Of a stretch of 64,000 bases of DNA, positions 28,649 to 58,212 are shown piece by piece. The translations under genes and the position numbers were made by a program. Every line of letters begins with the position of its first letter. Position 1 is the stretch's first letter. The DNA comes from Alphaproteobacteria bacterium (GTDB lineage: Bacteria > Pseudomonadota > Alphaproteobacteria > JAPOUT01 > G958296285): the NCBI GenBank assembly GCA_965209065.1, contig OZ242373.1, forward strand, positions 646,202 through 710,201, in the 5' to 3' direction. The notes under the pieces are model-generated. The model saw nothing but the letters and a program-made list of their open reading frames with translations. It searched no databases and had not been told where the DNA came from.

Positions 28649-28650
28649 CA

Positions 28651-29313: not shown

Positions 29314-30060
29314 ATGAGAAATATCAGCGGCGAAACTATTATCATTACTGGTGCCTCTTCCGGCTTTGGCGCCGAAACTGCACGAATGCTCGTCAAGGAC
29401 AAGGGCGCGAATGTCGTCTTGGGTGCTCGGCGCGCCGAAAAACTTCAGGAGCTCATCAAGGAACTCGGCGCGGATAAGGCTATCGCCAAGCCGTGCGATG
29501 TCCGCAAGTGTGATGACCTCAAGGCTCTCGCCGCCGCTGGTGTCGAGAAGTTCGGCACCATCGATGGTCTCGTCAATAACGCCGGGATTATGCCTCTGTC
29601 TATGCTCGCCGCCGGGCGCACCGACGAGTGGGACGATATGATAGACACCAACATCAAGGGCGTGCTTTATGCCATCAATGCCGTGCTGCCCATAATGATA
29701 AAAAATGAGAAGGGCTCGATTGTCAATATCTCTTCGGTTGCGGGCAGACGCGTTAGCCCCGCGGCGGCGGTCTATTCGGGGACGAAGTTCGCGGTGCACG
29801 CCATCTCTGAGGGATTGCGCCAAGAGGTCGCGCCCCATAAGATTCAAGTTTGTTGTGTTTATCCCGGCGCCTTCCAAACCGAGCTTGCTGGCTCTATCAA
29901 GGACGACAAGGTGCTGGAGATGGTGCGGAAAAGATTTAGTGGCGCGGGTGCTATCGGCGATGCGAAGCACATCGCGAATGCGATTGTGTTTGCTTTGAGT
30001 CAAGACCCATCGGTAGCGGTGAACGAGCTGATGCTGCGCCCTGTCGCACAAGATATGTAG
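29314..30060 (+). CDS. Short-chain dehydrogenase/reductase (SDR) family oxidoreductase
   Basis: 248 aa. TGASSGFGAETAR (TGxxxGxG), NNAG, and the catalytic YSGTKFAV (YxxxK). High GC, in contrast to the flanking AT-rich genes. Confidence 0.85.
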   Translation: MRNISGETIIITGASSGFGAETARMLVKDKGANVVLGARRAEKLQELIKELGADKAIAKPCDVRKCDDLKALAAAGVEKFGTIDGLVNNAGIMPLSMLAAGRTDEWDDMIDTNIKGVLYAINAVLPIMIKNEKGSIVNISSVAGRRVSPAAAVYSGTKFAVHAISEGLRQEVAPHKIQVCCVYPGAFQTELAGSIKDDKVLEMVRKRFSGAGAIGDAKHIANAIVFALSQDPSVAVNELMLRPVAQDM

Positions 30061-30155
30061 CACCACAGCGAGACCTTAAAAGATATATCAGGCACGGAAA
30101 TATGGTGCCTGCTTGCCAATAGCTTGACTGACTTTTAATTTTAGTTCATTATTTA

Positions 30156-31910: not shown

Positions 31911-31926
31911 AATATAAGAGAAAAAT

Positions 31927-32003
<77 letters not shown>

Positions 32004-42500: not shown

Positions 42501-45500
42501 ATTGAGGCAGCACTTAAATTAAGTGCACCACTGCTTCCATTCAAAGCAAAGTGTCCGCTTAAAGAAATATCTTCAAGCGCGGTAAGAGTGAGTGTCTCCA
42601 AAGCAACATAAGCGAACGCCATTGCAGAATGCAACGTGATGTTATTCGCGCTGAAGTTCGTATTATTGCTGTAATTTATGCTACCCCCTTGAGCGTTAAG
42701 CTTCAAATTGCCCGCGCCAAGCGTAATCGTGCGCGGCGGCGTAATACTAGCGGTTTGCGCTGTGAAAGACAGGTCCTTATCTGTTTCAATAACCCAGTTA
42801 GGCAAGGCAATATCTAAGGTGCCGGTGTAAGTGATGTCAAAAATTGCGGTATTAAAACTTGGGTTGCCCGAGAAAGATTGAGCGGTGACGAACAAAGTGC
42901 CGGTGCCAATATCATAGTTGCCCGCGAGGGTTAGCAGCCCTGATGAAACCAACAGAGTAAGGTTTTTATTGCTCGGCGTAGTGGGGGCGCCTGCTGCCGA
43001 AGAGATGGAGAGATTTCCTGCCACGCTAATAGAAGAGTTTGCTGTGCTAGAAAAAGCCATTGGCTGGGCGGTGGAGGTGAAGGAGAGACCATCTAATCCA
43101 TTTATGGAGCCATGGACGCTTACCGCGCGCGCGGTAACAACGCTTGAGCGAGTAAAGGTAGCTATCGCACTGCCGTTAAGCGCAATGCTAAACTGCGCGC
43201 CTGAGGTTGGCGTTCTATTGGTTAAGTTTATTTGCGGTATGGTTAAGATGATACTATTGTTTGCGGTCAAAGACAAAGAAGCGTTTGGCACGGTAGAAGA
43301 GTTGCGCAGAGAATTGGCTATCTTCGTCAAAGTGATAGAAATAGAATTAGCCGTTAAAGATACATTTTCTTTTATGAGTTCAACATCTAAAGCTGAAATA
43401 GTAAAACTAGCGTTTTCAAAAATGACATCACTAAAGTTAAAGCTGACATTCTTTTCAAACGCATTGATGGTTAAACTTCTACCATTTTGGAATACGCTCT
43501 CTCTTAAATTGAGTTCGCCCGTTTCCAAATAGTTTAGAGTAAGATGAGAGGTAGATAAACTCGTTGGAAATGTAATAGCCACACTTTCTAAAGTGATGGC
43601 GGCAACATTGAGATTACCACTAAGCGTGACGCTCTGTGTGCCGACAACCATAACATTGAGCCCGCGTTCGGCTTGGCTCGGCGCTCTCGCCGATGTTAAT
43701 GAAACAATATTTCCTGTTAAAGTAACATCTGCGCTTTTTGAGAAGAGAATTTTACCTAAAGCCTGCGTTTTTAGTGTTAGGTCATATTCACCGAGTGAGA
43801 TATCGCTAGTAACCTTGATATCACCTTGCGAGGACAAAGATAAATCACCCATCATTATCTCTATGCTGTTGAGAGTAACAACGGTGCGTGTTTCTATTGT
43901 TATGTTCGTGTTGATTGGGGTTGTGTCATCGCTGGCATAAGCCGAGAGGGAAAACGCATTAACCTTGAGAACGACGCCCCTTTTCACAGCTCCATCTAAA
44001 CTTAAAGAGTAAGTTTGTATGGAGTTGGTTCTTGCTGAGCTAATTGTTGTTAGTCCCCTATCGTATTGTGATGTCCCTGCTCCGCCAACAGAAATTCTAG
44101 CCCCTGACGACACGGTCAAGGAAATTTCTGTCGCGCTCTTTGTGATGGGGGGTGTCGAAGAGGAATAACCAAAATGATAATAGGTAAAAGAAAAAGTATT
44201 CGCTCTTATCTCAGAGCTGGCTGACGGGGTAGACAATCTCAAAGCAGAAATTTCAAGCGTTCCTGTGCCAATATCAATAATCCCATCTACAACGAGCGCA
44301 CCGGCATTAACAGAAAGATTTTTATTGCTAGCCGTAATAACCGTGCCTTCAGGCGCTGTAGAAGTAAGTTTAATAGTCTCATTCGCAGTTAAAGAGACAT
44401 GACTGCTTGTTGAAAAATTAATGAGGGTGCTTGCTTTTATTTCTAATAGCGCGTCAGCACTAAGATTGGCGTTCACATTGACAAACGCGCCTTCAAAAGT
44501 GAGGTCGGTAGTAGAGCTCGTTATCGGCACATCAATGGTGGCTATATTCGTTGCCACAAATTTACCTTCGTTCCCTTTCACACTCACGGAATTTGTTAGC
44601 CCATCGCCCGTAGCGCGCGCCGAGCGCTTTAGAGTAATATTCCCCGCGCTGAACGTTATTGTAGAATCCGTCTCTAATGGAAAATTGAGTGTTGCGTGCA
44701 ATGCTAACGTTAGCAAAGCGCCGGTAGCATTTATATTGTTGTTGATATTTAATATTGGCGAGTCTAACAACAGCGGAGACGAGGCTTGAAGAGAGCTACC
44801 AATTCTAATGCCATCGGTTCCAACAAGATTCAATGTTTTTCCTGCGGCAACGATATTTGTTATCCCTCCTGAGTTATTGGCAGTTGCTATGCCGTCGATA
44901 GTAAGCCACCTGCCCGTTAGGATTATATTTTCGCTTGTTGCTGATTGAATATTTATTGTTGAAGTGTTCTCTGCTCTTAAAGTGCCGGAAGAGGTTATGT
45001 TGCTAAATATATTTAAGCTAGGCGCTCTTAAAGTAAGCGAGCCACTTGTTTGATTGATAGTGTTATTGATGGTAACAGAAGCTGTTCCTCTAAAAATGGT
45101 TAGGACGCTATTGGAACTGCTTATGGTAGTGGTTGTTGCACCACTAAGGCTCATATTAGAGCCGCCTAGAATTATATGCTCGCTAGAAGAAGGCGCAGTG
45201 TTATTTAGCGCAGTGACATTGATTAGGGACAAACTACCGATGGAGGAGATATTTCTATTAGTGTTTAGAGTGGGCGTGTTCAAGGTGAGTGTGCCACTCG
45301 TTTGATTGATGGTGCTACTGGTGGTAATAGAAGTCGTCCCATTGAAAATAATTCCGCCGCCTCTGGTGCTAGTCATGGTAATCGTTTCCACATCACTGAT
45401 GCTCACATTAGAGCCTTCTAGGGTTACAGGTGCTGTGGTGGCTAAAGCATTGTTTAGCGTAGCGATGTTTTTTAGGGTTAAATTGCCACTGGTAATGATG

Positions 45501-47812
45501 CCGCTACCAGCGATGCTTAGCCTAGGCGTGTCTAAGGTGAGCGCGCCACTCGTTTGATTGATAGCACTATTGATAGGAATACTCCCTGCGCTCTTGAGCG
45601 TAACCGTGCCTGAGCCGGCAAGCGTAATCGTTTCCGCGCCACTAATGACTATCGCATCTGTACCCATTAGAGTAATTGCGTTATTAACTATTCCCGTTGG
45701 AAAATTTATGTTAGCAACATCGCTTATTATCAAAGCAGAGGCAACGGTGATGCTATTATCGATCCTGAGTGTTTGCGTGCTTAAAGTAAGCGTGCCGTTT
45801 GGTTGATTGATAGTGCTTCTGATAGTAATAGAATCCGTTCCGATAAAGGTGAGCGAACCACCACTAGAGGTCGTCAAGGTAGTGCTTGAGGTAGCGCTTG
45901 AACCACTAATGTCTATTGCCTCGCCCTCTAGAGTGATAGGAGGGCTATTGCCTCCTGTTGGGAAATTTATAGCGGCGGCATTGTTTAATCCCAGCCGATT
46001 GACGGAGGTGATGTCTTTGTTGATATTGAGTATTGGCGAATTTAAAACGAGTGAGCCACTCGTTTGATTGATAATGCTATTGCTAGTAAAAGAGCTTTCG
46101 CCAGAAAAAACGATCACAGCGTTATTATCGGTGCTTGTTACAGTAATTTTTGTTGCGCCATTGATGTTCATATTAGAGCCACCTAGAATTACAAACACAG
46201 TATCATCGGCAACTAAAGTGACGTTTAGCGTAGAGACATTATTTAAGGTTAAATCGCCGACTGTGGAGATGCCATGCGTAGTGAATGTTGGCGTATCTAA
46301 CACGAGCGAACCGCCTATTTTGAAAACATGAGTTGGAATGTCAATACGCTGTGTGCCCCTAAGCGTAACCTTGCTTGAGCCGTGCCAAAGGGCATTTTCC
46401 GTGTTAGTGATTTCTATCGACGGTGCCGTTAGAGTGATTATGCCGCTCGTTGGAAAATTTATGCTGTTAGCATTTCTTAGCGACAAGGAAATATTGGAAG
46501 TGATGTTATTATTTATATCGAGTCTTGGCGCGTTCAAAATGAGCCTGCCACTCGTTTGATTGATAATGCTATTGATTACAACAGAAGTCGTTCCTCTAAA
46601 AATGGTTGTCCCACGATTAGAATTCGTCATAGTAACCGTTGATGCGCCATTGAGAATCACCTTCGAACCTTGTAAGGTTATAAAGTTAGCGCCATTTAGC
46701 GTAGCGACATTAGTTAGGGTTAAATTACCACTGGTGGTGATGTTGCTATTGATATTAAGTGTTGGCGCATCTAAAGTAAGACCACCATTCGTTTTATTAA
46801 TAGAATTACTAACCGTTATAGAAGACCTTGCCCTTAATATGACATTGCCATTAAAATTTTTAATAGCACGAGGGGTAAAAGTAGCAACACTATAACCTGC
46901 ATCTTTTCTAACTTCACCGCCGCCATTTGTAATCAGACCATTACTACTGAGGATAGCAACTTTTATAAAAATAGCCTCTGGGTCAATTAAAAGTTCGCCT
47001 GCTTTAATGTCAGACAGATTAAAAGAAGCAAGAAATGTCTTACCTGATATTTCAACAAAGCCCCCATTGCTTTCTTGCGTGGCGTCTATTTTTCCCTCAA
47101 AAAAAGTAGAGCCGTCTGACCACACAATCACGCGCGGCGCGATAATGGAAGTGTTCGGCTCTATATGGGTTAATTGAGAATTGGTAATCTTCCCTTCCCC
47201 TTGATAATCACCACCAATTAAAACTTCTTCGCTTGCTCTTATATCGGCACCCGAACCACTCGTGGCAGCGATGCGCACTTCGTTCGCGCCCTCTACGATA
47301 ACTCTGCTCGCTTGAACCGCACCGCCAATATTGACAACATTCTCCTTGCCTAAACTTTGGAAATGAACTTTGCCTTGAGGCGAAGTAATCGAACCACGCG
47401 CAACAATATCTCCCGCGCGCGCCGAAGCAAGCAAGCCGCCCACATTCACCACCGAGCCTTCGTTAAAACGAATCCCCGCCGGGTTCTCTAACGAGACGCG
47501 TCCGTTCGCGGTAAGTGTGCCAGATATATTTGTTGTTGCATCATTGCGCACCTTAATAGAAATAAGCGATGAAGCTGATGGCTGTGTAATACGAACGACC
47601 TCGCCTTTAGCGATGTCAAAACTTTGCCAGCTTGTCGTTAGGGTGTCGCTATGTTGTTGAATGAGAAGCGGGTTCGATAGGTCGCCCGCGCCTGCGGTCA
47701 CACGCCCGCCACTCGGTGCGGCATGTAAGCCGACCGCTCCTAAAAGAGTTGCCAAACCTAAGGCAACAACGAATAATCGAGCAAAAAGTAAATAGCCCAT
47801 AAAAATATACAA
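36530..47812 (-). CDS. Giant TPS-domain secreted exoprotein (3760 aa), filamentous-haemagglutinin-like beta-helical repeat protein
   Basis: It has a signal peptide and a TPS domain (WQSFDIAKGEVVRITQP...ISGTLTANGRVSLENPAGIRFNEGSVVNVGGLLASARAGDIV). The rest is thousands of residues of G/T/S/N/L/I-rich beta-helix repeats, including a tandem array of about 180-aa units. Confidence 0.85.
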   Translation of the reverse strand: MYIFMGYLLFARLFVVALGLATLLGAVGLHAAPSGGRVTAGAGDLSNPLLIQQHSDTLTTSWQSFDIAKGEVVRITQPSASSLISIKVRNDATTNISGTLTANGRVSLENPAGIRFNEGSVVNVGGLLASARAGDIVARGSITSPQGKVHFQSLGKENVVNIGGAVQASRVIVEGANEVRIAATSGSGADIRASEEVLIGGDYQGEGKITNSQLTHIEPNTSIIAPRVIVWSDGSTFFEGKIDATQESNGGFVEISGKTFLASFNLSDIKAGELLIDPEAIFIKVAILSSNGLITNGGGEVRKDAGYSVATFTPRAIKNFNGNVILRARSSITVSNSINKTNGGLTLDAPTLNINSNITTSGNLTLTNVATLNGANFITLQGSKVILNGASTVTMTNSNRGTTIFRGTTSVVINSIINQTSGRLILNAPRLDINNNITSNISLSLRNANSINFPTSGIITLTAPSIEITNTENALWHGSSKVTLRGTQRIDIPTHVFKIGGSLVLDTPTFTTHGISTVGDLTLNNVSTLNVTLVADDTVFVILGGSNMNINGATKITVTSTDNNAVIVFSGESSFTSNSIINQTSGSLVLNSPILNINKDITSVNRLGLNNAAAINFPTGGNSPPITLEGEAIDISGSSATSSTTLTTSSGGSLTFIGTDSITIRSTINQPNGTLTLSTQTLRIDNSITVASALIISDVANINFPTGIVNNAITLMGTDAIVISGAETITLAGSGTVTLKSAGSIPINSAINQTSGALTLDTPRLSIAGSGIITSGNLTLKNIATLNNALATTAPVTLEGSNVSISDVETITMTSTRGGGIIFNGTTSITTSSTINQTSGTLTLNTPTLNTNRNISSIGSLSLINVTALNNTAPSSSEHIILGGSNMSLSGATTTTISSSNSVLTIFRGTASVTINNTINQTSGSLTLRAPSLNIFSNITSSGTLRAENTSTINIQSATSENIILTGRWLTIDGIATANNSGGITNIVAAGKTLNLVGTDGIRIGSSLQASSPLLLDSPILNINNNINATGALLTLALHATLNFPLETDSTITFSAGNITLKRSARATGDGLTNSVSVKGNEGKFVATNIATIDVPITSSTTDLTFEGAFVNVNANLSADALLEIKASTLINFSTSSHVSLTANETIKLTSTAPEGTVITASNKNLSVNAGALVVDGIIDIGTGTLEISALRLSTPSASSEIRANTFSFTYYHFGYSSSTPPITKSATEISLTVSSGARISVGGAGTSQYDRGLTTISSARTNSIQTYSLSLDGAVKRGVVLKVNAFSLSAYASDDTTPINTNITIETRTVVTLNSIEIMMGDLSLSSQGDIKVTSDISLGEYDLTLKTQALGKILFSKSADVTLTGNIVSLTSARAPSQAERGLNVMVVGTQSVTLSGNLNVAAITLESVAITFPTSLSTSHLTLNYLETGELNLRESVFQNGRSLTINAFEKNVSFNFSDVIFENASFTISALDVELIKENVSLTANSISITLTKIANSLRNSSTVPNASLSLTANNSIILTIPQINLTNRTPTSGAQFSIALNGSAIATFTRSSVVTARAVSVHGSINGLDGLSFTSTAQPMAFSSTANSSISVAGNLSISSAAGAPTTPSNKNLTLLVSSGLLTLAGNYDIGTGTLFVTAQSFSGNPSFNTAIFDITYTGTLDIALPNWVIETDKDLSFTAQTASITPPRTITLGAGNLKLNAQGGSINYSNNTNFSANNITLHSAMAFAYVALETLTLTALEDISLSGHFALNGSSGALNLSAASITSTATLTRNDLNITWTSTSASVPSWAVVENKNLSVSALTATLELPDSIDIGTGDLTLSATAMSGTPSITRGALTLIWTGTTASLPSWAVVANKDLVIQATSADISVPASLAMGSGSLTLDAVAGALVFASTSLSGGSITLKSKTQPRASDQAATIDATNITLSGKFNFGTGGLTLKASDITTQDDFALTRGGLFITWKGTSATIPAWAMVADKNLSVSALTATLTLPDSIDIGTGDLTLSATAMSGAPSITPNITRGLLTLIWTGTTASVPSWAIEANKNLSVSALTATLELPDSIDIGTGDLTLSATAMSGTPNITRGLLTLIWTGTTASVPSWAVEANKDLIVQATSADISVPASIVLGSGSLTLDAIAGALVFASTSLSGGNIILKSKTQPSASTQAATIDATNITLSGKFNLGTGGLTLKANSITTQDEFALTRGGLSITWKGASATIPNWAIVADKDLSVSALTATLELPDNINIGTGNLTLSATAMSGTPSITRGALTLIWTGTTASLPSWAVVANKDLVIQATSADISVPASLALGSGSLTLDAVAGALVFASVNLSGGSITLKSKTQPRASNQAATIDATNITLSGKFNLGTGGLTLKANSITTQDEFALTRGGLFITWKGTSATIPAWAMVADKNLSVSALTATLELPDSIDIGTGDLTLSATAMSGTPNITRGLLTLIWTGTTASVPSWAVEVDKDLIVQATSADISVPASVVLGSGSLTLDAVAGALVFASANLSGGNIILKSKTQPSTSAQDTSAQDTSAQETTIDATNITLSGKFNFGTGGLILKANSITTQDDFALTRGGLSITWKGNTAFIPSWAVVENKDLTIIAAKADISVPVSFSLGSGDLTLDAVVGALVFASVNLSGGSITLKSKTQPSTSNRDATIDALNTITLSGKFNFGTGDLTLKASDISTQDEFALTRGSLFITWKGASATIPAWAIVADKNLSVTALTATLELPANIDIGTGDLTLSATAMSGTPSITRELLTLIWIGDSASVPDWAVVEDKNLIVQATKADISVPTSLALGLGDLTLDAITAALAFDSSTSTNLSGRSITLKSKTQPRASNQKATIDVSTRMTLSGKFNFGTGDLDLKGDSITTQNDFAFIRRGLFILWRGGEAPVPSWAIEEGKDLTITAREASISVPNRFLIGSGNLVLEAKLGGINFDNSAPTKISASSITLIANAIHRASNQNLHLLSASVLLLSGDFSIGTGALSLEAQFIDYKAHFIRGDLSITWSSTSATIPDWAIEQDKNLSVTALITKLVLPSALDIGAGNLSLTAPELFVLGDFSLTRNALSLTLTGETDFVIPNWAIARDKSLSITTTQSNINAPASMDLGTGDFTLHTQEGAINFDKTSPTRFVANNITLISTSFLAVNNQNAEFIAAEELSLGGFMLFGEGDLTLNAQNIIFQEITQLGATNIRFTTNTKDEDITNIKDESVSIVATNDLVFENKAGNTVINLGVTTLSAGNNMIFRSNTFVFAYSLHLGPSLDAGRRDITLTTTSFISFADTRATIITGGNVSLMSPNRQQIPSDRNLIIRARGDIELEGSFFIGDGNALFYAGDKRGLGVIRFIATPSFRAGDYRLEQNGGLFPRKKPATFRSGDNSIDVIPLLIYTGIEVEYRVDWGRQLFVLNGSKDITLLDLQAFGENHQGFDFTNGVFDIGDNALTLITSGDIILPIALTERGIVIKARRITLRGRRLISADSLKQLTSHLTLEARESIVLDIDVTSNYNFVIDSASLSFSVQKAVNILAANIHIYAENQPEKNYQNVSLLAHNNIYLRGSLNIGLATLVLQAGEKINLERAESENEKDVEIKANRIIYRTLVNEEETAEGASSHNLMLNAENDIHLDTNLVLGSHIALRAGGSIITPESDEGFVIKALGKGKNLIFEQKYAARVNGNINLSASGNIVLRGALDRGEGFIVLNSNGLLDIQDTLRILGSDIDFTYSMVLLPSGHRLVLRQRSPSFAAPSNEGS
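38500..42620 (-). repeat. Tandem array of ~540-nt coding repeats (~7.5 copies, near-identical) inside the 3760-aa TPS gene
   Basis: Antisense-frame ORFs at 38895, 39531, 40386, 40920, 41478, 42210 translate to near-identical ~180-aa peptides. The sense protein shows a repeated unit ALTRGGLFITWKGTSATIPAWAMVADKNLSVSALTATLELPDSIDIGTGDLTLSATAMSG...KSKTQPRASNQAATIDATNITLSGKFNFGTGGLTLKA. Unit lengths are 534-558 nt, with one unit carrying a ~190-nt partial internal duplication. Confidence 0.85.
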
Positions 47813-47944: not shown

Positions 47945-50900
47945 TTAGGGGCAAATATTAGAATTGACAGAAAAGCACAAGCTATTTGTCAAAAAAGGCA
48001 TATCCATATCTGCTATGCTGCGCGCGCTCGCCAGCAAGGGCAATGTTATATCATGCCCGCCGAGCGCGGTAAGAAGCAACCTGCCATCAAAGGTATTACT
48101 TGTGATGCGCTCTACAAGCTCAAAGCCTATGAGCATAATGCTTTCTGAAATAAGCTCAACCGCCCTATTGTAATTTGTGCTCTGTCTTTGTTGTAGGAAT
48201 ATACTGCTCTCCTCTCCTCTCGCCTCGACACGATGGCTACCCGCGCCTCCTGTTGAAAAGAAAATAGTCCCACCGGCACGCAAGGTGATGCTGCCGTTAA
48301 TAACCAGATGATTAACAAGATGAATATCATTTGCAGCTTGTAAGGTGAAGCTATGGCTTGGGTCATTTTCATCATTGAACCTGCCGGCGCTATGGAATAT
48401 TCTATTGGCTCTAATTTCTACATCTCTCATTTCCTCGCCTGGAGAGGGGATTGATTTTATACGCCCACCGGCTTCTAGCCTTAAACTCGCAAGCCCTATA
48501 TTGAGCTGCCCTTGTAAAGAGATGTCTTGCTCACTTCTGAGAATAACATTTTGGTTATTGGCGATTGGCAACCCTCTTGAGTCGAAGTTTATATTGTTCG
48601 CTTCTATGAGGATAGGTTTGTAAAAAGAGAAGTTGATAGCGGCTGCCCTGATAGTAATATCATGTGTTGAGGTAATATCAGCATCAATTAGCACGTTGTG
48701 GGTTGCTTCAAGAATTAGATGGTTGATGACGTCGTCATTTGAGCTCGTTTTGATTCTCCTGCCTGACAAAACGATACTACTAGCTCTAATAACAAGGGGT
48801 CTATTTGTGTTTTCTATTCCTGTTAGGTCAATATCTCCGCTAGTGATTAAGATGAGAGGTATATCACCAAAATCAAACACGCCATCGGCGAAAGAAGCGC
48901 CAAAATATTCTTCACCGACCTCAAGCAAGGTCATTAAGTCAATGCCTTCATCGCCGGTGCGAACGATAAACTGATGCGCCCAATCCACCGCCGGCTGGAA
49001 TAGCTCTATGCCAGTATAAATAATAAGAGGTGAAATATCAATTTGATTATTCGCGAAGTAGAAATTGGCAGGCTTCTCGCTTGCAAAGAAGGCGCCATTT
49101 TGCTCTAACCTATACCGCTCAGCCGCGAAGCTTGGAGTTGAAACAAAGTTGATGACACCTAGCTTCCCATTATTTCCTGCAATAAGCCATACATCGCCCT
49201 CGCCTAAAAGGAAATACCCCTCTAGCGTGATGTTTCTATTTGCTCTTATGGTTAGGTTTCGGTTGCTGAAGGTTGCTTGCTCACTCGGCGAAACCAAAGA
49301 TATGCTCTCCCCCTCTATGACAGTATGCCTATCGTCAGCAAAAGTGATACCACCATTGGTTAAAGCAGTTAGGGTGAAGTTATTCTCGGCGGCTTTTATC
49401 ACGCCGCCGACATGTATCGTGGCAGCTGAGAAGGTAGCCGAAGTCTGAATTTCAATTTCGTTATCCGCGATAATCATCAAGCCATCTAGCTCTAGCGAAA
49501 AGAGCTTCTGTCTATCGTTAAAGGTCAAGTTATTGTCTGCGGTAATCTCTAGACTTGCGGTCGTGGGAGAGGAAACATCAATGTCTTTGCTATTCGTGTT
49601 GATGTAAATATCGTTCGCCACCAGCTTACTATTGCCGAGAATAAAGATACGCTCGGCATTGAGGGTAACATTACCTGTGCCAAAATCAAAACTACCCACC
49701 AGCGAAATGTTTTCTAATGCGGTCAAAATGAGCGTTTGGTTGCTTGGCGAGAGCCCATTATCATTGCTAGCCGTTAGGCTTATGCTTCTTGCCGAAATAG
49801 TGCCTGTGGCGGTGGTGGCAAAATTAATCACGCCCGCGCTATTGATGGTTAAAGCGCCATCACCAATTTCCAAAGAAGGCGGCAAGATGATGCCTGCTTG
49901 AAGCACGGTAACGGACATGTCTCCGTTCTCATCAATAGCCCATTGAGGAATGAAGGCTGTTTGGGCTCCGCTCCATGTGAAGGTGAGCGCGTTTCTGTTG
50001 AGGGTGGCGACGGTTGCGCCTACTCGGCCGGCGGATACAACTAAATTGCCTGTGCCGATATCAAACCTACCCCTTAAAGAGAGCGTTTCTATAGCGGTTA
50101 GGGTTAGGTCTTGATTGCTCGCCACGGGTTTCCTATTAGAGCCGAGGGTTATGTTTGCCGCGCTAATTTGGGTGGGGAAGTTCTTGCTAAAGCTGATAGC
50201 GCCCCCTATGCCCGACCTGACGGTTAAATTGCCGGTGCCAATATTGATATGCCCCTCAAGCAAGACAGAGCCTAGCGATGTGATAACAATGTTTTGATGA
50301 CTTGCCCGTTGTGATGCGCTTACAGAGGCTATCGTTAGATCGCCGACATTGACGATGGTTTCGGCTTGGGTATCGAAATTGACCGCACCCGCAAGCGCAC
50401 TGACGCGTAAATGACCTGCGCCTAGATTCACTATCGTCGGGAAGCTAATATCTGCGGTCTCAGCGATGATGCTAACACTACGATTTCTTATCATCATCCA
50501 GTTTGGGACAGCAAAGGGGTTCTGGGATTTCCATACGACTTCCAAAGAACCTAAAGTAATTACTGGGGAAACCAAAATAGAGCCAATGATGGGCGCGTTG
50601 AGAGTCAAATGCCCCGCGCCTATATTGATGTCTCTATCAACGGTAATGTTGGCGCTTTGCGAGACAATCACCAAATTACTATTCATTGCTATCATCCAAT
50701 CTTTGATGAAGAAATTTTCAATTCCATTCCAAATAATCGTAAGCGATCCCCTTTTTATGCCTGCCTCGACAACTGAAAACTCAGAAGTGGTTATAACGAT
50801 ATCCCCTACCCCTGTATCGAAATTGCCGGTGAGAGAGAGTGTATTTTCCGCTTCAATAATAAGATTGTGCTGGCTCCGCGCGGGGTTGCCGTTTGAGGTT

Positions 50901-53900
50901 AGCAGAATGTTGCTTGCGGTGAGCAAGGTTGCCCCCCTATTGTTGAAGTTGATTCCTCCTCGTTGAGCGGTCAAGGTCAAGGTAGCGTTGCCAATGTCAA
51001 TGGCGTTCGGGAGGTAAAGGTCAGCTAACTTCGCTATGATGGTTAAGTCTTTATTGCGACTAATAACCCAGTCAGGCACATCGAACACTTCGGGACCGGT
51101 GATGGTTATCTCAAGGCTATCCCTTAAAACGACCGGAAAGTTTAATGGCGTGTATAAAGAAAAGCCCGTTATGAATAAATCTCCTGTGCCGATGTTCAAC
51201 ACGCTAGGGATACCAACAAGAGCGTTTTCGGCGATGATGGTTAGGTTTTTATTCGTTGCTAGTGTCCATTGAGGAATGGTGAAGGTGGTTTCGCCTGTCC
51301 ATTTGAATGTGAGCGCATTGCGCGTTACGCTGTTTGCATCTGATATGGAAGGACCTTCAAGCCATAGGTTGCCCGTGCCGATGTCAATCGTAAGAGGCAG
51401 AATAAGCGGCGCTTGTTGAGAAATAACAGTTAAGTTTTTGTTTTGCACTATTGCCCATGCGGGAATAGAGGCGGTTGAACCCGTCCAAGTGATGTGGGTG
51501 TTGTTTCTAAAAAGAGTAGAGGAGTTCGTTAGGACTATATTTTGTCCTTCAAGCGTGATGTTGCCGGCAGGCGTGCCGCCGGTGGTGCGGAGATCAAAAT
51601 TACCATCAAGGGTGATATTTTCTATGGCAGTCAAGGTGAGGTCTTGATTGGTTTTGGTAGCAGGTCCCTTAGAAATAAGGGTTATACTTCTCGCCCTAAT
51701 GGTGGTTGAATCGTTTCCATCAAATATAATAGAGTGGCTACCAGAATTGACAGTAAACGAACCCGTGCCTAAATCAATAAAAAACGGCAAAATGATATTT
51801 GACTGAAGCGTAAAGGATGTATTTTGGTTTTTCTCCAAGAGCCAACCTAGAATTTGGAAATCATTTGGGTTGTTATAAATAAGCTCTATCCCACCTCGAA
51901 TAAAGTTGGGATTACCCACAATTAAGGTAGCGGTTATCTTTAATAGTCCCGTGCCAATATTATAATTACCATTTATGGTTAATGTCTCTAAGACCGTAAT
52001 CGTGAGCGCTTGGTTGCTTGAGAGGCGCGGCGTTCCGTTTGATGTCAAGGTTACTTCCCGCGCGGAGAGGGTGGTTGCGCCCTGAGAGTTAAAATTAATA
52101 GCCCCTGCTTGCGCTTCTATTACCACCGTGCCTGAACCAACATTAGCATTTCTAGGGATAAAAATGCCGCCTCGTGTAGCAATAATAGTCACATTTTTAT
52201 TTTCAAGGAAAGCCCATTGGTAAACATCAACCCTTCTTGCGTTCGTTAGCCTCATTATAAGGAAGTTTCTGTTAAAGCTCGTGGGAATAGTCGGCTGAGA
52301 TATAGAAAGAGCCGTGAGAGTAAGATTGCTCGTGCCAATATCAAATGCGCCATTTATTTTGGTTAAACCTGAAGTGGTTATGGTCAAATTTTGATTGCTC
52401 GCCACGGGGGCGCTACCCTGAGAAGTTAGCTCAACTCTTTTTGCCGTAATTACAGTTGCTCTATCATCTGCGAAGTTAATTGTATTCCTTGGACCTGAAA
52501 CCATTACCAAGACGCCGTCGGTAAAATCAAAACGCCCGCCAAACAAAATATCACCCCTTGCCCTAAGGGTGGCGTTTATGTTCACGAGGCTAGCGGCAGT
52601 GCCTGCCGAGAGGATAGTGATAGCATTCGCCTCTAATTCTATTGTGTTCCTACCGCTGTTAATAAATAGAACGCGTCCTACTTGCGCTTCAAACAGCAAG
52701 TTGCCTCCGCCAATATCTATATTATCCGACACGCTAATATCTGCGCTGACGGCTTTTACCGATAAATTCACATCTTCCACAACCGCCCAGCGTGGCGCGT
52801 AGGCGGTCGTCCCTGTCCATAGGAAAGTAATGCCGCGCAAGGTAATGCTGGTTGCTGTTCCGCTTATTGTTTCTGCGGTGATAAATAAATTGCCGTTTCC
52901 AATATCAATGGAGTCAGGTATTTGTAATGGGATTGCTTGCGCATCGACGTAGAGGTCGCTATTGACGGTCATTGCCCACTCGGGGATAGAAGCGGTCGTG
53001 CCCGTCCATGTTAGGAAAAGAGTCCCCCGCCTTATGATAGATGAACCGCTTGCGCTTGGAATAGAAAGTCTTAGCTCTCCATTGCCCATATTTACCAGTG
53101 CCGGCAGATCCAGCGTTGCGAAGAGCGAAGTGATGGATAAATTTTTATCTAATGCTATTGCCCAGTTTGGTATCGTAGCTGTAGTCCCTACCCAAGTAAT
53201 GTTTAAATCATTTCGCGTGAGGCTTGCGATGTTGGTAATTGAAGCAGCACTTAAATTAAGCACGCCACTGCTTCCATTCAAAGTAAGATGACCGCTTAGA
53301 GAAATTTTGTCGCTGGCGGTAAGGGTGAGTGTCGTAAAAGCAGTGTCAGCAAATACCGTTTGAGAATGTAAGGTGATGTTTTTGGCATTATAAACCGTGT
53401 TCTCGATATACTGTATGCGCCCTACTTGAGCGTTGATTTCTAAATTACCGTTTCCAATATCAATGAGGCGCGGCGGCGTGATATTAGCGGTGCGCGCGGT
53501 AAAAATGAAATTTACACCAAATTGAATAATCCACGGAGGCAAGACAGCATCTGCGGTGCCGGTATAAGTAATATCGAAAGTGGCAGCTTTGAAGCTTGGG
53601 TTGCCGATGAAGGCTTGAGCGGTGACGAACAAAGTGCCGGTGCCAATATCATAATTACCTAAGAGAGTTAGCGTCCGTGATGTGACCGACAGGGTAAGGT
53701 CTTGATTGCTCGGCGTGCTGGGTGTGCCTGCTGAATCGATGGAGAGGTCTTCTACCGTGTTAATAGAAGTGGGTATCGTGCTAGAAAAGGAGATTGGATC
53801 AACCGTGGAGATGAAGGAGAGATCATCTAATCCACTAATGGAGCCATTGAGGCTTATCGCGCGCGCGGTAATGACGGTTGAGCGGGCAAAGGTAGCTACC

Positions 53901-56900
53901 GCATTGCCGTTAAGCGTAATACTAAACCGCGCGCCTGAGACTGGGGCTCTGGTGGTTAAGTTTATTTGCGGTATGGATAAGGACATACTATTATTTACGG
54001 TCAAAGCCAAAGAAGCATCTGGTTCGATAGCAGTCGTGCGAATGGAACTAATAGCAGCCGTCAAGGTAATAGAAATAACATTAGCCGTTAAGGATACATT
54101 TTCTCTCATGAGGTCAATATCTAAAGCCGAAATAGCAAAGCTTGCGTTCTCGAAAACGACATTACCAAAATCAAAGCCGACATTCCTTTCAAGCGCGTTG
54201 ATTACTAGAATTCTACCATTTTGGAATAAATCCGCTGTCACATCGACCCTGCCCGTTCCCAAATAGTTTAGAGTAAGACGCGCGGGCAATAAATCACCCG
54301 GAAATGTAATATCTGTGCTTTCTAAAGTAACGGCGTTAGCATTCAAGTCGCTATTAATCGTGACGCTCTGTGTGCCAATAATCGTAACATCAAGCGCGCG
54401 CTCGGCTTGGTTGAGGATTCCCGCCATTGCCTCCGCTGTTGTTCCATCTGATGTTAGTGAAATCGTGTTTGCCCTTAAAGTAATATCTGCGTTTTGTGGG
54501 AAAAGAATTTTGCCTGTGCCTTGCGAGTCTAGCGCGAGGTCGTAACTACCGAGATTGATATTCCTAGCAAGATTGATACTACCTTGCGAAGTTACAGATA
54601 AATCACCCATAGTTACATTTATATCGTTGAGGGTGATATTGCCGCCTGTTTCTACATTTACGGTCATATTGATTGGGTTTGTGTCGCTACTTGAATTAGC
54701 TAAGATTGAAAAATTCCGCACCGTGATAGCTACTCCCTTTTTCACGGAGGTGTCTATACTTAAAAAGAGAGTTTGTGTTGCGTTATTTCTTTCTGCGCTA
54801 ATTGTCATCAGCCCTTTAGGGGATACTCCTGTTGGCGCCCCCCTAATGGTAGCCGAGCTATCCTCGGGCACGGTCAAGGAAATTTCAGTCTTTGCCCGTG
54901 TGAGAGTATCAGGCTCACCAGCAAAAAAACCGAAGTGATAATAGAGGAAAGAAAAGCTAGTCGCTTTTATCTCTGTGCTTGTTGATACTGCAGATATCCT
55001 CAAACCAAGGACGGAAAGCGTTCCCGTGCCAATATCAATAATCCCATCAAAAATAACTTCCGGAGCGGCAAGTGAAAGATTTTTATTACTTGGAACAATG
55101 GTTGTCCCTGCAGGTGTTTTAGAAGTAATTTTAAGCGTTCTCTCCGAAATTAAATTAATATTCTTACTTGTTGTAAAATTAATTTGAGTATTTGCTTTTA
55201 CTTCTAACAGACTACCCCCGGCAAGAGTATTATTCACATTGATAATATCCCCCTCAAAAGTGAGTGCTGCAAGGCTTGCCACGAGAGGATTAATGGTAAT
55301 ACTATTCGTTGCTACAAATCTAACATCTCTGCCGCTCACAGTGATAGTGCCCCCATTACTAAAAGTTATATTATCCCCCTCTAGGGTTATCGATGCACCA
55401 GCGGCTGAAGTGTCATTTATCTTAGTCAAATTGGTTAGGGTTAAGTTACCGCCGACGGTGAGGTCGGCGTCAGAAATGTAGGTTGGCGTGTTTATGGTTA
55501 GCGCGCCATTGGTTTTATTGACATTATTAGAAATCGTAATAGACGTTGTGCCGCGAAGCGTAAGTGCACTTGTAGTGGTAAAGGTAGTAGTAGTTGCTGT
55601 TGCGCTAGATATCTCTAACACATCACTCGTTATGGTCATAGCGGTGTTAGCTGGAAAGTTTATAGTGGAAACCTCGCTTATCAAAACGGCGGCACTGGAG
55701 GTGATGCTTCTATTGATATTGAGTGTTGGCGCTTCTAAAATAAGCACGCCGTTCGTTTGATTGATAACTCTATCGATTGTAATAGAAGTTCCCCCATCTA
55801 AAGTGATTGCCCCGCCATTAGTGCTAGACAGGGTGGTCGCTGTTGTTCCGCCTTCTATCCTCACATTATTTCCCCCTAGCGTTATCGAGCTACCCAAGGT
55901 TGAAGAGTTTCTTATTGTGGAGATTTCCTCTAGGATTAAATCACCTGTAGTAGAGGCGCTAGCACCGCTATTGAGTGTTGGCGTGTCTAAGATAAGATTG
56001 TTAGTTAATTTATTAATACTATTCCCAATAGTAAGAGATGTTGTGCCGTTAAACGTAGCCGTGCCTGAGCCGTCAATCGTAATCGTTGGTGAGCCACTGA
56101 TATTTATCGTCCTGCCCCTCATGGTGATTGCTGGATTAGCGGAAGTAACAGGGAAATTTATTCTTAACACATTCCTTATTATCAAATCACCGCTAGTGGT
56201 GACGTTGCTATTGCTATTGAATCTTGGTCCGTCTAGAACAAGCGACCCACTACCCGTTTGATTGACAATTTTATTGAATATGGTGGCTTCGCTAGATGTA
56301 AAAACTGTCCTCACGTTACCGGTTATGGTAATTGTTGCCGCGCCATCGACGCTCACATCTTCGCCTTTTAGGGTTATAGAAGAGCGCCCCCTACTCGCTG
56401 CAGTGTTAGCTAGCGTAGTGAGATTGTTTAGAGATAAATCGCCCCTAGTGGTGATGTTGCTAGAGATATTGATCGTTGGCGCGCTTATAGTGAGCGAGCC
56501 GACTACTAGATTGGCAAATTCATTTTCTTGATTCAAGTCGCTGTTAATAATAACACTCAGTGAGCCAGTAAGCCTAAGCACACGCGAACCCCTTATATTA
56601 ATTGTTGATGCGCCACTGATACTTAGCGTCCTAGCCGATAGGAATCTTGAGGTGTCGCTGCCGAAAGTTGGAAAGTTCATGGTGCTAACATTTTGTATTG
56701 TCAAGGCGCCGGTAGTGCTAACGCTACTATTGAAAGTGATTGTTGGCGCATCTAAGGTAAGACTGCCATTCGTTTTATTAATAGCATCAGTAATCGTTAT
56801 AGAAGTCCCTGCCCTTAATATGACTCTGCCGTTAAAATTTTGAATAGCAGTAGGTGTGATAGTATTGATGGAACCACCATCATTGACTCGAATATCACCG

Positions 56901-57817
56901 CCTCTATTTGTAAGCAGACTATTACTATTGGGGGAAATGCTTCTTACAACAATGTTACTGGGGTCAATTAAAAGTTCGCCTGCTTTAATATCAGCTAGAT
57001 TAAGAGGGCCAAGGGTCTCCTTGCCTGATATTTCAACAAAGCCCTCGTTACTTCCTTGCGTGGAGTCTATCTTACCTTCAAAAAAGGTAGTGTCGTCTGA
57101 CCACACAATCACACGCGGCGCGATGATAGAAGTGTTCGGCTCTATATAGGTTAATTGAGATTTGGCAATCGTGCCGCCTCCTTGATAATCACCTCCAATT
57201 AAAACTTCTTTGCTTGCTCTTATGTCAGCGCCCGAAGCAATGCGCACTTCGTTCACGCCCTCTACGATAACTCTGCTCGCTTGAACCGCACCGCCAATAT
57301 TGACAACATTCTCCTTGCCTAAACTTTGGAAATGAACTTTGCCTTGAGGCGAAGTAATCGAACCACGCGCAACAACATCTCCCGCGCGCGCCGAAGCAAG
57401 CAAGCCGCCCACATTCACCACCGAGCCTTCGTTAAAACGAATCCCCGCAGGGTTCTCTAACGAAACGCGTCCGTTCGCCCTAAGTGTGCCAGATATATTT
57501 GTTGTTGCATCATTGCGCACCTTAATAGAAATAAGCGATGAAGCTGATGGCTGTGTAATACGAACGACCTCGCCTTTAGCGATGTCAAAACTTTGCCAGC
57601 TTGTCGTTAGGGTGTCGCTTTCTTGCTGAATGTTTAAGGGGTCGGCGAGATTCCCTGCTCCCGCTTCTATGCGCCCACCGCTTGGGGCGGCATAGGCAGA
57701 GCCAGCCATTAAACCCATAAGGGTTAGCGCCAAAACCCCTAAAAACCCTAAAACATTAGTGGTTTTTGGAATTTTCACAAAAAATATGTCCAAAAATATG
57801 TTCTGTATAGAACTCAT
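47945..57817 (-). CDS. Giant TPS-domain secreted exoprotein (3290 aa), paralog of the 3760-aa gene
   Basis: N-terminal region with an extended signal peptide. Its TPS domain is almost identical at the nucleotide level to that of the 3760-aa gene (compare 57390-57640 with 47430-47680). Mosaic homology continues along the length (for example 53700-54270 versus 42900-43550). The C-terminal regions are diverged. Confidence 0.85.
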   Translation of the reverse strand: MSSIQNIFLDIFFVKIPKTTNVLGFLGVLALTLMGLMAGSAYAAPSGGRIEAGAGNLADPLNIQQESDTLTTSWQSFDIAKGEVVRITQPSASSLISIKVRNDATTNISGTLRANGRVSLENPAGIRFNEGSVVNVGGLLASARAGDVVARGSITSPQGKVHFQSLGKENVVNIGGAVQASRVIVEGVNEVRIASGADIRASKEVLIGGDYQGGGTIAKSQLTYIEPNTSIIAPRVIVWSDDTTFFEGKIDSTQGSNEGFVEISGKETLGPLNLADIKAGELLIDPSNIVVRSISPNSNSLLTNRGGDIRVNDGGSINTITPTAIQNFNGRVILRAGTSITITDAINKTNGSLTLDAPTITFNSSVSTTGALTIQNVSTMNFPTFGSDTSRFLSARTLSISGASTINIRGSRVLRLTGSLSVIINSDLNQENEFANLVVGSLTISAPTINISSNITTRGDLSLNNLTTLANTAASRGRSSITLKGEDVSVDGAATITITGNVRTVFTSSEATIFNKIVNQTGSGSLVLDGPRFNSNSNVTTSGDLIIRNVLRINFPVTSANPAITMRGRTINISGSPTITIDGSGTATFNGTTSLTIGNSINKLTNNLILDTPTLNSGASASTTGDLILEEISTIRNSSTLGSSITLGGNNVRIEGGTTATTLSSTNGGAITLDGGTSITIDRVINQTNGVLILEAPTLNINRSITSSAAVLISEVSTINFPANTAMTITSDVLEISSATATTTTFTTTSALTLRGTTSITISNNVNKTNGALTINTPTYISDADLTVGGNLTLTNLTKINDTSAAGASITLEGDNITFSNGGTITVSGRDVRFVATNSITINPLVASLAALTFEGDIINVNNTLAGGSLLEVKANTQINFTTSKNINLISERTLKITSKTPAGTTIVPSNKNLSLAAPEVIFDGIIDIGTGTLSVLGLRISAVSTSTEIKATSFSFLYYHFGFFAGEPDTLTRAKTEISLTVPEDSSATIRGAPTGVSPKGLMTISAERNNATQTLFLSIDTSVKKGVAITVRNFSILANSSSDTNPINMTVNVETGGNITLNDINVTMGDLSVTSQGSINLARNINLGSYDLALDSQGTGKILFPQNADITLRANTISLTSDGTTAEAMAGILNQAERALDVTIIGTQSVTINSDLNANAVTLESTDITFPGDLLPARLTLNYLGTGRVDVTADLFQNGRILVINALERNVGFDFGNVVFENASFAISALDIDLMRENVSLTANVISITLTAAISSIRTTAIEPDASLALTVNNSMSLSIPQINLTTRAPVSGARFSITLNGNAVATFARSTVITARAISLNGSISGLDDLSFISTVDPISFSSTIPTSINTVEDLSIDSAGTPSTPSNQDLTLSVTSRTLTLLGNYDIGTGTLFVTAQAFIGNPSFKAATFDITYTGTADAVLPPWIIQFGVNFIFTARTANITPPRLIDIGNGNLEINAQVGRIQYIENTVYNAKNITLHSQTVFADTAFTTLTLTASDKISLSGHLTLNGSSGVLNLSAASITNIASLTRNDLNITWVGTTATIPNWAIALDKNLSITSLFATLDLPALVNMGNGELRLSIPSASGSSIIRRGTLFLTWTGTTASIPEWAMTVNSDLYVDAQAIPLQIPDSIDIGNGNLFITAETISGTATSITLRGITFLWTGTTAYAPRWAVVEDVNLSVKAVSADISVSDNIDIGGGNLLFEAQVGRVLFINSGRNTIELEANAITILSAGTAASLVNINATLRARGDILFGGRFDFTDGVLVMVSGPRNTINFADDRATVITAKRVELTSQGSAPVASNQNLTITTSGLTKINGAFDIGTSNLTLTALSISQPTIPTSFNRNFLIMRLTNARRVDVYQWAFLENKNVTIIATRGGIFIPRNANVGSGTVVIEAQAGAINFNSQGATTLSAREVTLTSNGTPRLSSNQALTITVLETLTINGNYNIGTGLLKITATLIVGNPNFIRGGIELIYNNPNDFQILGWLLEKNQNTSFTLQSNIILPFFIDLGTGSFTVNSGSHSIIFDGNDSTTIRARSITLISKGPATKTNQDLTLTAIENITLDGNFDLRTTGGTPAGNITLEGQNIVLTNSSTLFRNNTHITWTGSTASIPAWAIVQNKNLTVISQQAPLILPLTIDIGTGNLWLEGPSISDANSVTRNALTFKWTGETTFTIPQWTLATNKNLTIIAENALVGIPSVLNIGTGDLFITGFSLYTPLNFPVVLRDSLEITITGPEVFDVPDWVISRNKDLTIIAKLADLYLPNAIDIGNATLTLTAQRGGINFNNRGATLLTASNILLTSNGNPARSQHNLIIEAENTLSLTGNFDTGVGDIVITTSEFSVVEAGIKRGSLTIIWNGIENFFIKDWMIAMNSNLVIVSQSANITVDRDINIGAGHLTLNAPIIGSILVSPVITLGSLEVVWKSQNPFAVPNWMMIRNRSVSIIAETADISFPTIVNLGAGHLRVSALAGAVNFDTQAETIVNVGDLTIASVSASQRASHQNIVITSLGSVLLEGHINIGTGNLTVRSGIGGAISFSKNFPTQISAANITLGSNRKPVASNQDLTLTAIETLSLRGRFDIGTGNLVVSAGRVGATVATLNRNALTFTWSGAQTAFIPQWAIDENGDMSVTVLQAGIILPPSLEIGDGALTINSAGVINFATTATGTISARSISLTASNDNGLSPSNQTLILTALENISLVGSFDFGTGNVTLNAERIFILGNSKLVANDIYINTNSKDIDVSSPTTASLEITADNNLTFNDRQKLFSLELDGLMIIADNEIEIQTSATFSAATIHVGGVIKAAENNFTLTALTNGGITFADDRHTVIEGESISLVSPSEQATFSNRNLTIRANRNITLEGYFLLGEGDVWLIAGNNGKLGVINFVSTPSFAAERYRLEQNGAFFASEKPANFYFANNQIDISPLIIYTGIELFQPAVDWAHQFIVRTGDEGIDLMTLLEVGEEYFGASFADGVFDFGDIPLILITSGDIDLTGIENTNRPLVIRASSIVLSGRRIKTSSNDDVINHLILEATHNVLIDADITSTHDITIRAAAINFSFYKPILIEANNINFDSRGLPIANNQNVILRSEQDISLQGQLNIGLASLRLEAGGRIKSIPSPGEEMRDVEIRANRIFHSAGRFNDENDPSHSFTLQAANDIHLVNHLVINGSITLRAGGTIFFSTGGAGSHRVEARGEESSIFLQQRQSTNYNRAVELISESIMLIGFELVERITSNTFDGRLLLTALGGHDITLPLLASARSIADMDMPFLTNSLCFSVNSNICP

Positions 57818-58008
57818 AACCTCTTATCTAAATCTCCTCTATTTGTGTTGAATAAAAGAGCCAAAGAACTCCCTATTATCATAATTTGTTTATTATATCG
57901 GTAGTTTCTATATTATGCTTATTTTCTGTATTTTCAAGTAAATTTTAGTAAAATTGATGCTCTGCCAATAAAATGTGATGAGAAAAGGAAAAAACGCCGA
58001 AATTAAGG

Positions 58009-58085
58009 CGGAGTGTGGCGCAGCCAGGTAGCGCACCTCGTTCGGGACGAGGGGGTCGCAGGTTCAAATCCTGCCACTCCGACCA
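58009..58085 (+). tRNA. tRNA-Pro (anticodon CGG), CCA encoded
   Basis: Plus-strand cloverleaf CGGAGTG...CCTCG-TTCGGGA-CGAGG...CACTCCG-A-CCA. Confidence 0.85.
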
Positions 58086-58136
58086 TGTTAATGGCCAGTA
58101 TTAAGGACTTATTTACCATTCACGGCATTATGATTA

Positions 58137-58212
58137 TGGCGACCTCGGAAGGACTCGAACCTTCAACCCTCGGCTTAGAAGGCCGATGCTCTATCCTTTG
58201 AGCTACGAGGCC
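58137..58212 (-). tRNA. tRNA-Arg (anticodon UCU)
   Basis: Minus-strand cloverleaf GGCCTCGTAGCTCAAAGGATAGAGC...CTTCTAA...GGTTCGAGTCC...CGAGGTCGCCA. Confidence 0.85.

Follow-up and report, generated by a model that had tools for sequence, protein, structure and literature searches.

Two-partner secretion (TPS, or type Vb secretion) is exemplified by FhaB/FhaC of Bordetella, HMW1/HMW1B of Haemophilus, ShlA/ShlB of Serratia, and the CdiA/CdiB systems, with the cognate TpsB transporter, composed of POTRA domains and an Omp85/ShlB barrel, usually encoded adjacent to its TpsA exoprotein. Genomic islands integrated at tRNA genes (tDNA islands) are marked by an intact tRNA gene, a displaced fragment of the cognate gene in the same orientation, and a tyrosine integrase between the two (Islander, PMC4383910). 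In 3760 of 3919 mapped tDNA islands (96%), the displaced fragment is a 3' fragment, so that the island lies 3' of its tRNA gene (Islander, PMC4383910). Here, we analyze a 64-kb stretch of alphaproteobacterial DNA (contig OZ242373.1, hereafter the window), in which a block of three tandem TpsA-type genes (32004-58008) is flanked by an initiator tRNA gene on one side and by a tRNA-Pro/tRNA-Arg pair on the other. A previous reading of this DNA from its sequence alone (the sequence-only reading) took the tRNA bracketing and the composition of the block as support for its acquisition or mobility as a unit. Our data favor another view, namely that the TpsA array is probably a fixed chromosomal locus that has grown in place and not a mobile island integrated at a tRNA gene.

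tRNA genes were called with ARAGORN and checked with the Rfam tRNA model (threshold 29 bits), which confirmed all eight tRNA genes of the window with scores of 59-73 bits and the three that flank the TPS block with scores of 65-71 bits. The tRNA-Pro/tRNA-Arg pair and the tRNA-fMet thus lie where the sequence-only reading had placed them (Table 1). Bacterial initiator tRNAs carry a C1xA72 mismatch and an A11:U24 pair, both of which are present in the sequence of the gene at 31927-32003; this CAT-anticodon gene is therefore tRNA-fMet, as had been claimed. Three consecutive G:C pairs in the anticodon stem are a further initiator feature (PMC3017606), and two of the three are found here, G30:C40 and G31:C39 being kept while position 29:41 is A:U. 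The A29:U41 initiator variant is frequent among metagenome sequences with the same T-arm. The bracketing of the TPS block by tRNA genes is real and somewhat unlikely by chance: with eight tRNAs among about 34 features of the window, two tRNA neighbors for a given block have p ~0.05, and at the genome-average tRNA density a double flanking would be much rarer.

The block itself has neither the 3'-side position nor the direct repeat, the integrase, or the presence/absence polymorphism of a tDNA island. Direct repeats of the tRNA 3' ends, which the sequence-only reading had proposed to look for at the cluster boundaries, were searched for and none occurs in the window: the 3'-terminal 23-mers of tRNA-fMet, tRNA-Pro, and tRNA-Arg have no other match there with up to three mismatches allowed, no k-mer of at least 13 nt from any of the eight tRNAs recurs elsewhere in it, and a general repeat search returned only repeats within and between the TpsA genes. 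The lack of an integrase in the cluster, already remarked upon, was upheld by domain scans of the open reading frames (ORFs) and by tblastn, which found neither an integrase nor a remnant of one anywhere in the window; the tblastn queries were the integrase, the AlpA-like helix-turn-helix (HTH) protein, and the AAA_25 protein of a sister-strain island described below, and the best E value was 0.22. Intergenic spacers measure 16-280 nt and are therefore too short to hide further genes.

Geometry adds to this picture. Both tRNA-fMet, whose 3' end is at 31927, and tRNA-Pro, whose 3' end is at 58085, turn their 5' ends to the TPS block; only tRNA-Arg points its 3' end at the block, and the oppositely oriented tRNA-Pro lies between them. 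Since the flanking tRNAs are three different genes, they cannot form an attL/attR pair of attachment (att) sites. A currently mobile 26-kb unit, that is, an integrative element using the flanking tRNAs as attachment sites, would account for tRNA genes on both sides and for the lower GC. However, the locus has no att repeat, integrase, or excisionase, its three unlike tRNA genes could not serve as such sites, two of these genes face the block with the wrong end, and the block is present in every strain, so that this explanation is effectively refuted.

The fixation of the block is seen in four conspecific assemblies, namely the 1.69-Mb genome (an NCBI/ENA contig of 1,687,333 bp whose proteins are identical to those of the window) and three sister contigs, ctg50084, ctg50149, and ctg49828, which come from one long-read metagenome (ERZ25069786), were found by exact-protein look-up, and are 96-99.7% identical to the window. 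The array stands at the same place, beside the same tRNAs, in all four. At both block ends, ctg50084 has the layout of the window (L081, L084), and ctg50149 has gene A beside the tRNA-Pro/tRNA-Arg pair (L082) as well as an allele of gene C. TpsA_A is 99.2-99.3% identical, without gaps, to its counterparts in two sister strains, and TpsA_C is 99.1-99.2% identical to those of ctg50084 and ctg49828, its counterpart in ctg50149 having been found as a cluster member. The adjacent core shows 96.2-99.4% identity between strains; because the identities match, the block is as conserved as the backbone in all strains at hand. No presence/absence polymorphism of the TPS block was observed among the four assemblies, and the interval 57818-58008 together with both neighboring tRNAs is 100% identical in two sister strains.

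One of these strains shows what genuine integration looks like in this species. On ctg49828, an integrase-bearing island of about 34.3 kb adjoins the 3' end of tRNA-fMet, on the side away from the TPS genes, and spans positions ~2475-36860 of the contig (L212 2475-11971 plus L083 1-5254, the middle 19.6 kb being unseen). From the TPS side, the order is the 3' end of gene C (99.2% to the window), the complete tRNA-fMet (L212 2475-2550), and then genes for an AlpA-like HTH_17 protein, an AAA_25 protein, a PLD-family nuclease, an SNF2 helicase, a type IIG restriction-modification enzyme (PADLOC, 2.9e-247), and a DUF2513 protein. Past the unseen part come a 2460-aa RTX/cadherin/S8-peptidase protein, an SPM protein, a GNAT acetyltransferase, and a P4-like tyrosine integrase (L083 3809-5002; Pfam Phage_integrase, 91.8 bits, plus Arm-DNA-bind_3). 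The island closes with a perfect 61-nt direct repeat (L083 5195-5254) that comprises the last 50 nt of tRNA-fMet, from within the anticodon stem onward, and 11 downstream nt; the two copies, which align as attL and attR, are 34.3 kb apart. Beyond the repeat follow two small ORFs, the gene of an SDR (short-chain dehydrogenase/reductase) oxidoreductase (98.2%), a type II restriction-modification pair other than that of the window, and tRNA-Tyr. The GC content at third codon positions (GC3) of the island genes is 0.27-0.44. When the C-terminal part of the giant island protein was used as a homologue query, the matches were swamped by RTX repeats and the protein itself was not returned, so that this query was discarded.

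The ctg49828 element, which combines an intact tRNA gene with a similarly oriented 3' fragment downstream, an integrase inside, and a length within 2-200 kb, serves as a positive control for the tests applied to the TPS block. The tRNA-fMet is demonstrably an attB in this species. Because entry takes place at the segment from the anticodon loop to the 3' end, integrating DNA ends up 3' of this gene; in the window, DNA entering by this route would likewise come to lie on the side opposite the TPS genes. A scan of Joint Genome Institute (JGI) metagenomes with the 3' 32-mer of tRNA-fMet, which bears on this gene as an attachment site and not on the TPS block, returned exact matches at 120 loci (L092-L211) from many lineages, none of them conspecific. 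About 25 of the 120 are partial tRNA copies that start at the anticodon loop and resemble att-type remnants, and tRNA-fMet genes of this kind thus commonly serve as attachment sites. In one of these loci (L153), two copies are 6 kb apart, and another (L130) matches ctg49828 in geometry and has a related integrase.

The internal structure of the array also speaks of growth on site. Three ORFs of 1488, 3760, and 3290 aa, all on the minus strand, take up the 25.8 kb between the tRNAs (32061-57817), and each has an N-terminal Pfam TPS domain (PF05860; 47-52 bits, cutoff 33.5). Their first ~400 aa share 54-72% identity in alignments; between A and B, identity over about 3200 aa is 37%. A repeat search of the window revealed collinear nucleotide blocks with 72-85% identity at a constant offset of about 10.7 kb, and 300 nt of the N-terminal regions of B (47267-47566) and A (57236-57535) are 98% identical. 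Such a block in surroundings of 72-85% suggests recent gene conversion between A and B. Gene B also holds internal repeats of about 546 nt, running from 38961 to 42593 with identities of 62-94%. The collinear repeats and the 98% block argue for tandem duplication and gene conversion over the import of a finished three-gene unit, and the array has thus probably expanded in situ, which speaks against the idea that the bracketing reflects an arrival as a unit. In a small-genome (~1.69 Mb), alphaproteobacterium-like host, the array would accordingly have become fixed between tRNA-fMet and tRNA-Pro and would have been enlarged there by these two processes.

TPS-domain genes in this species also occur away from tRNA genes. 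The window has a fourth, short gene of this kind at a distance of about 28 kb from the array. Its neighbors are a sodium:solute symporter gene and a P450 gene (1-1190) that is cut off by the window edge, and its 746-aa product is 35-46% identical to the array genes in the TPS core; positions 1-25577 are tRNA-free, the nearest tRNA being about 22 kb away. In the protein collection, the only close TPS-domain homologues are on ctg49580 and ctg49461 (L090 and L091), which have TpsA genes in tandem arrays and are free of tRNAs within 10 kb. L090 can be assigned to the species of the 1.69-Mb genome, since the two share an identical RNR protein. The presence of TPS-domain genes at tRNA-free loci, both at 1230-3470 and in L090, counts, together with the missing repeat and integrase, the 5'-side position, and the fixation in four of four assemblies, against reading the bracketing as a sign of mobility. 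The nearest non-conspecific TPS-domain matches have at most 39% identity, in homologue listings that included no protein longer than about 970 aa and where giant TpsAs could therefore not appear as matches.

The side of the array that faces tRNA-Arg was also followed into more distant relatives. The NDUS4 gene adjoins tRNA-Arg in the window, and homologues with about 70% identity were found at four loci (L085-L088), of which two belong to genomes of 1.1-1.6 Mb. Each of the four has tRNA-Arg(TCT) directly after NDUS4, and the content downstream differs: an outer-membrane protein plus an unrelated 3138-aa protein, Sel1-repeat proteins, or N6/N4 methyltransferases, with a conserved ABC-transporter block past the variable content. 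After tRNA-Arg, the tRNA-Pro(CGG), the tRNA-fMet, and tuf are all missing from these four loci, where the synteny of the flank is lost; no TpsA similarity was found within about 10 kb of NDUS4/tRNA-Arg, and no tRNA-derived repeats were found at these loci. A closer relative (L089, with NDUS4 83% identical) has the order abhydrolase-DUF1329-NDUS4-tRNA-Arg as in the window; its contig ends 74 nt past tRNA-Arg, with no tRNA-Pro where the window has one. In this closest other species, those 74 nt (L089 3604-3677) consist of short direct repeats (GGTTCGCCAC..., and TATAAATTAGGCT twice). Since NDUS4-tRNA-Arg is kept while the following content varies, the 3' flank of tRNA-Arg is a synteny breakpoint that is variable between genera. 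The general notion that tRNA loci are sites of gene flux is borne out here by tRNA-fMet, the attB of a sister strain, and by the variable tRNA-Arg flank, and is not supported for the TPS block.

Some of these loci have peculiarities of their own. In L085, from the 1.6-Mb genome, a tandem array at 10343-11047 (98-nt unit, 7.3 copies, 95% matches) is degenerate and tRNA-Arg-like, and runs into the genuine tRNA-Arg(TCT) downstream of NDUS4. The giant gene of the same locus lies just past tRNA-Arg, after an outer-membrane beta-barrel gene, and is thus equivalent in position to the array and unrelated to it. As a candidate orthologous cluster, this protein of more than 3138 aa (L085 12680-20309) was rejected, having no TpsA similarity and no Pfam domain. 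A scan of a genome collection with the DUF1329 neighbor gave a best match of 46% in the PS1 clade and otherwise Pseudomonas sequences at 41-47%; four DUF1329 loci that were checked (L001, L002, L018, and L044) have no tRNA.

Base composition was the second argument of the sequence-only reading, and it stands in part. GC is lower in the block (45.1%) than in the core to its left (49.6%) and right (48.0%). The claimed greater variability was not found, the scatter over 1-kb windows being practically the same (SD, standard deviation, 0.026 for block windows and 0.027 for core windows; block range 39-51%). GC3 is 0.44 in the block and 0.525 in the core (1-kb windows, Mann-Whitney p = 1e-6). At the first and second codon positions, the block has 0.45 and 0.47, respectively, as compared with 0.56 and 0.39 in the core; because GC1 is lower and GC2 higher, part of the shift reflects amino-acid composition. 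We infer that the remainder may come from weak codon selection or from an old, largely ameliorated acquisition. Compared over the 64 kb and a few other loci of the genome, the GC3 of the block falls between the core (~0.53) and proven mobile DNA (~0.3) and overlaps that of several chromosomal surface-protein genes.

These values bear on the explanation that tRNAs and array meet by pure coincidence, the array being an ancestral, vertically inherited locus in the tRNA-dense region next to tuf/rpoBC, with a GC shift due to its amino acids and weak expression. Eight tRNAs in 64 kb would fit, as would the shift of GC1 and GC2 in the direction expected for repeats rich in Asn, Thr, Ser, Gly, and Ile, and similar GC3 values are found in other genes of surface proteins or of unknown function, namely Sel1 (0.45), DUF1329 (0.47), the 746-aa TPS gene (0.41), and the genes of 452-aa and 508-aa proteins (0.43-0.44). 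This explanation is less easily reconciled with the relatives at ~70% NDUS4 identity, which have no TpsA similarity within ~10 kb of NDUS4/tRNA-Arg, with the distance to the nearest TPS-domain matches outside the species, or with the paralogous array of the same species, which is mostly core-like in GC3. On balance, we regard pure coincidence as possible but rather doubtful.

The same observations can be read as traces of an ancient island that was later immobilized: one or more TpsA genes, perhaps along with tRNA-Pro(CGG), would have been inserted at the 3' end of tRNA-Arg(UCU), lost the integrase and att sites, become fixed, and only then been duplicated. The array does lie 3' of tRNA-Arg, and in the relatives, both L085-L088 and L089, NDUS4-tRNA-Arg is kept while the content beyond varies and has no tRNA-Pro(CGG). 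Besides, the intermediate GC3 fits a partial amelioration, the paralogous TPS locus being mostly core-like, and the same species hosts a tDNA island with another giant exoprotein (RTX/S8). Nevertheless, there is no fragment of tRNA-Arg or tRNA-Pro and no integrase remnant in the window, the four strains show no presence/absence polymorphism and a divergence equal to that of the core, and rearrangement at the tRNA would account just as well for the synteny lost between genera. An intervening, oppositely oriented tRNA-Pro is also foreign to the usual tDNA island signature (PMC4383910). An ancient island thus appears unlikely. We would give still less credence to its fullest version, in which the TpsA array and tRNA-Pro(CGG) were captured together as an old island at a tRNA-Arg(UCU) 3' hot spot, fixed, amplified in place, and served by a TpsB from another locus. 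If that version were true, then, taken with the RTX/S8 island at tRNA-fMet, genes for giant surface proteins would have been imported repeatedly through tRNA-gene hot spots in this small-genome lineage.

Several observations weigh against our preferred reading of a fixed locus grown in place. Two tRNA neighbors are only a ~5% event even at the local tRNA density, and the array is on the 3' side of tRNA-Arg(UCU), where the DNA differs in the four relatives and in L089. The GC3 of the array genes (0.43-0.45) is below that of most core genes (~0.48-0.66). In the TPS arrays of L090 and L091, GC3 is mostly 0.50-0.58, with two short N-terminal fragments at 0.41-0.46; since most of these genes are core-like, gene class does not fully explain the low GC3. 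The conspecific data come from one metagenome and one genome, and no genome with an empty site, lacking the array yet keeping both flanks, was found.

The remaining features of the locus, together with those of the array, are listed in Table 1. The interval that had been singled out as the island boundary, 57818-58212, is ordinary: it consists of the AT-rich region upstream of the first array gene and of a convergent pair of housekeeping tRNA genes separated by a 51-nt spacer. The upstream region (57818-58008) is presumed to be the promoter and leader region of the TPS array. A promoter scan of it gave a single sigma-70-like match, on the minus strand at 57937-57910, which was not above shuffle expectation, and promoter and terminator scans at both block boundaries likewise gave no match above that level. 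A metagenome scan for the pattern of the tRNA-Pro/tRNA-Arg pair returned zero matches.

Table 1. Features of the 64-kb window discussed in the text, in order of position.
Feature	Position	Strand	Evidence and setting
Fourth, short TPS-domain gene, 746 aa, 42.5% GC	1230-3470	-	TIGR01901 40.6 bits (cutoff 29.1)
tRNA-Tyr	27072-27156	-	ARAGORN; end of the conserved tuf/rpl/rpoBC block, left edge of the variable islet
Type II restriction-modification pair, 30% GC	methyltransferase 27437-28648, restriction enzyme 28651-29172	+	PADLOC MTase_II 6e-166, REase_II 2e-49
SDR oxidoreductase, 56% GC	29314-30060	+	Pfam; conserved backbone gene between two variable slots
GmrSD-family (Orf5/HEC-06-like) nuclease, 37% GC	30156-31910	+	Pfam, PADLOC; 3' side of tRNA-fMet
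Initiator tRNA-fMet (CAT anticodon)	31927-32003	-	ARAGORN and Rfam; 3' end toward GmrSD, away from the TPS array
TpsA gene C, 1488 aa	32061-36527	-	Pfam TPS 47.3 bits; adjoins the 5' side of tRNA-fMet
TpsA gene B, 3760 aa, paralogue of A	36530-47812	-	Pfam TPS 52 bits
TpsA gene A, 3290 aa, signal-peptide-like N-terminus	47945-57817	-	Pfam TPS 50.2 bits (N-terminal 406 aa); TIGR01901 57.7 bits
AT-rich intergenic region, 28% GC	57818-58008	.	5' of TpsA gene A
tRNA-Pro(CGG)	58009-58085	+	ARAGORN; Rfam 65.2 bits; 5' end toward the TPS array
tRNA-Arg(UCU)	58137-58212	-	ARAGORN (anticodon TCT); Rfam 70.7 bits; 3' end toward tRNA-Pro and the TPS array

Beyond tRNA-fMet, the neighbor of the block is a defense islet (27157-31926) with a GC content lower than that of the TPS block itself, contrary to the description of the flanks as core genes. 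The SDR gene in its middle is 98.2% identical in ctg49828 although its neighbors differ on both sides. That contig has no GmrSD gene, other genes occupying the slot, and in the restriction-modification slot it encodes a HaeIII-like restriction enzyme and a Dam-like methylase, so that the HaeIII-like pair lies on one side of SDR and two small ORFs lie on the other; its identity to the window extends up to window position 27333. Neither an integrase nor repeats were found in the islet as present in the window. The strain-variable compartment of the window is thus the islet at 27157-31926 and not the TPS block at 32004-58008.

A TpsB protein (ShlB/POTRA) had no match among the window ORFs scanned or in the gene tables of the L090 and L091 arrays. 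The transporter of the TpsA-like genes must therefore be encoded elsewhere, or secretion must follow a different route. A toxin/immunity reading of the contact-dependent inhibition (CDI) type was also considered and rejected, as the proteins lack a C-terminal toxin domain and their genes are not followed by small ORFs.

The significance of these findings is mainly corrective, in that tRNA adjacency and a slightly low GC do not amount to evidence for an island. Such a claim needs agreement between 3'-side geometry, an att repeat, and a third feature, which may be an integrase or polymorphism among strains, and in this species tRNA-fMet supplies an internal positive control for what real integration looks like. 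For annotation, the gains are a fixed three-gene TpsA array without TpsB, a defense hot spot around SDR, and the 34.3-kb tRNA-fMet island. The biology involved is already known, and the understanding of genomic islands and of two-partner secretion is left unchanged.

Compared with the described type Vb systems, the array proteins are alike in having an N-terminal TPS domain (PF05860, TIGR01901) behind a signal-peptide-like segment, in the conserved ENPAGIRF motif of this domain, which corresponds to the NPNGI motif, and in being giant, repeat-rich, and presumably beta-helical. The array differs from these systems in that three TpsA genes stand in tandem with no TpsB/Omp85 in the 64-kb window or beside L090/L091, and from CDI systems in having no small immunity-like ORFs and no recognizable C-terminal toxin domain. 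Compared with tDNA islands, which include tRNA-linked, adhesin-bearing pathogenicity islands (Islander, PMC4383910), the TPS block shares tRNA adjacency, lower GC, and a surface-protein cargo, whereas it has no tDNA fragment or integrase, lies 5' of tRNA-fMet and tRNA-Pro between unlike tRNA species, and is present in every strain. The islet resembles the defense hot spots beside tRNA genes, its restriction-modification pair and GmrSD gene having 30-37% GC and its slots being swapped in a sister strain, but tRNA-fMet separates it from the TPS array that had been flagged. The element on ctg49828, with its 34.3 kb and its anticodon-centered crossover, is a textbook member of the tDNA islands (Islander).

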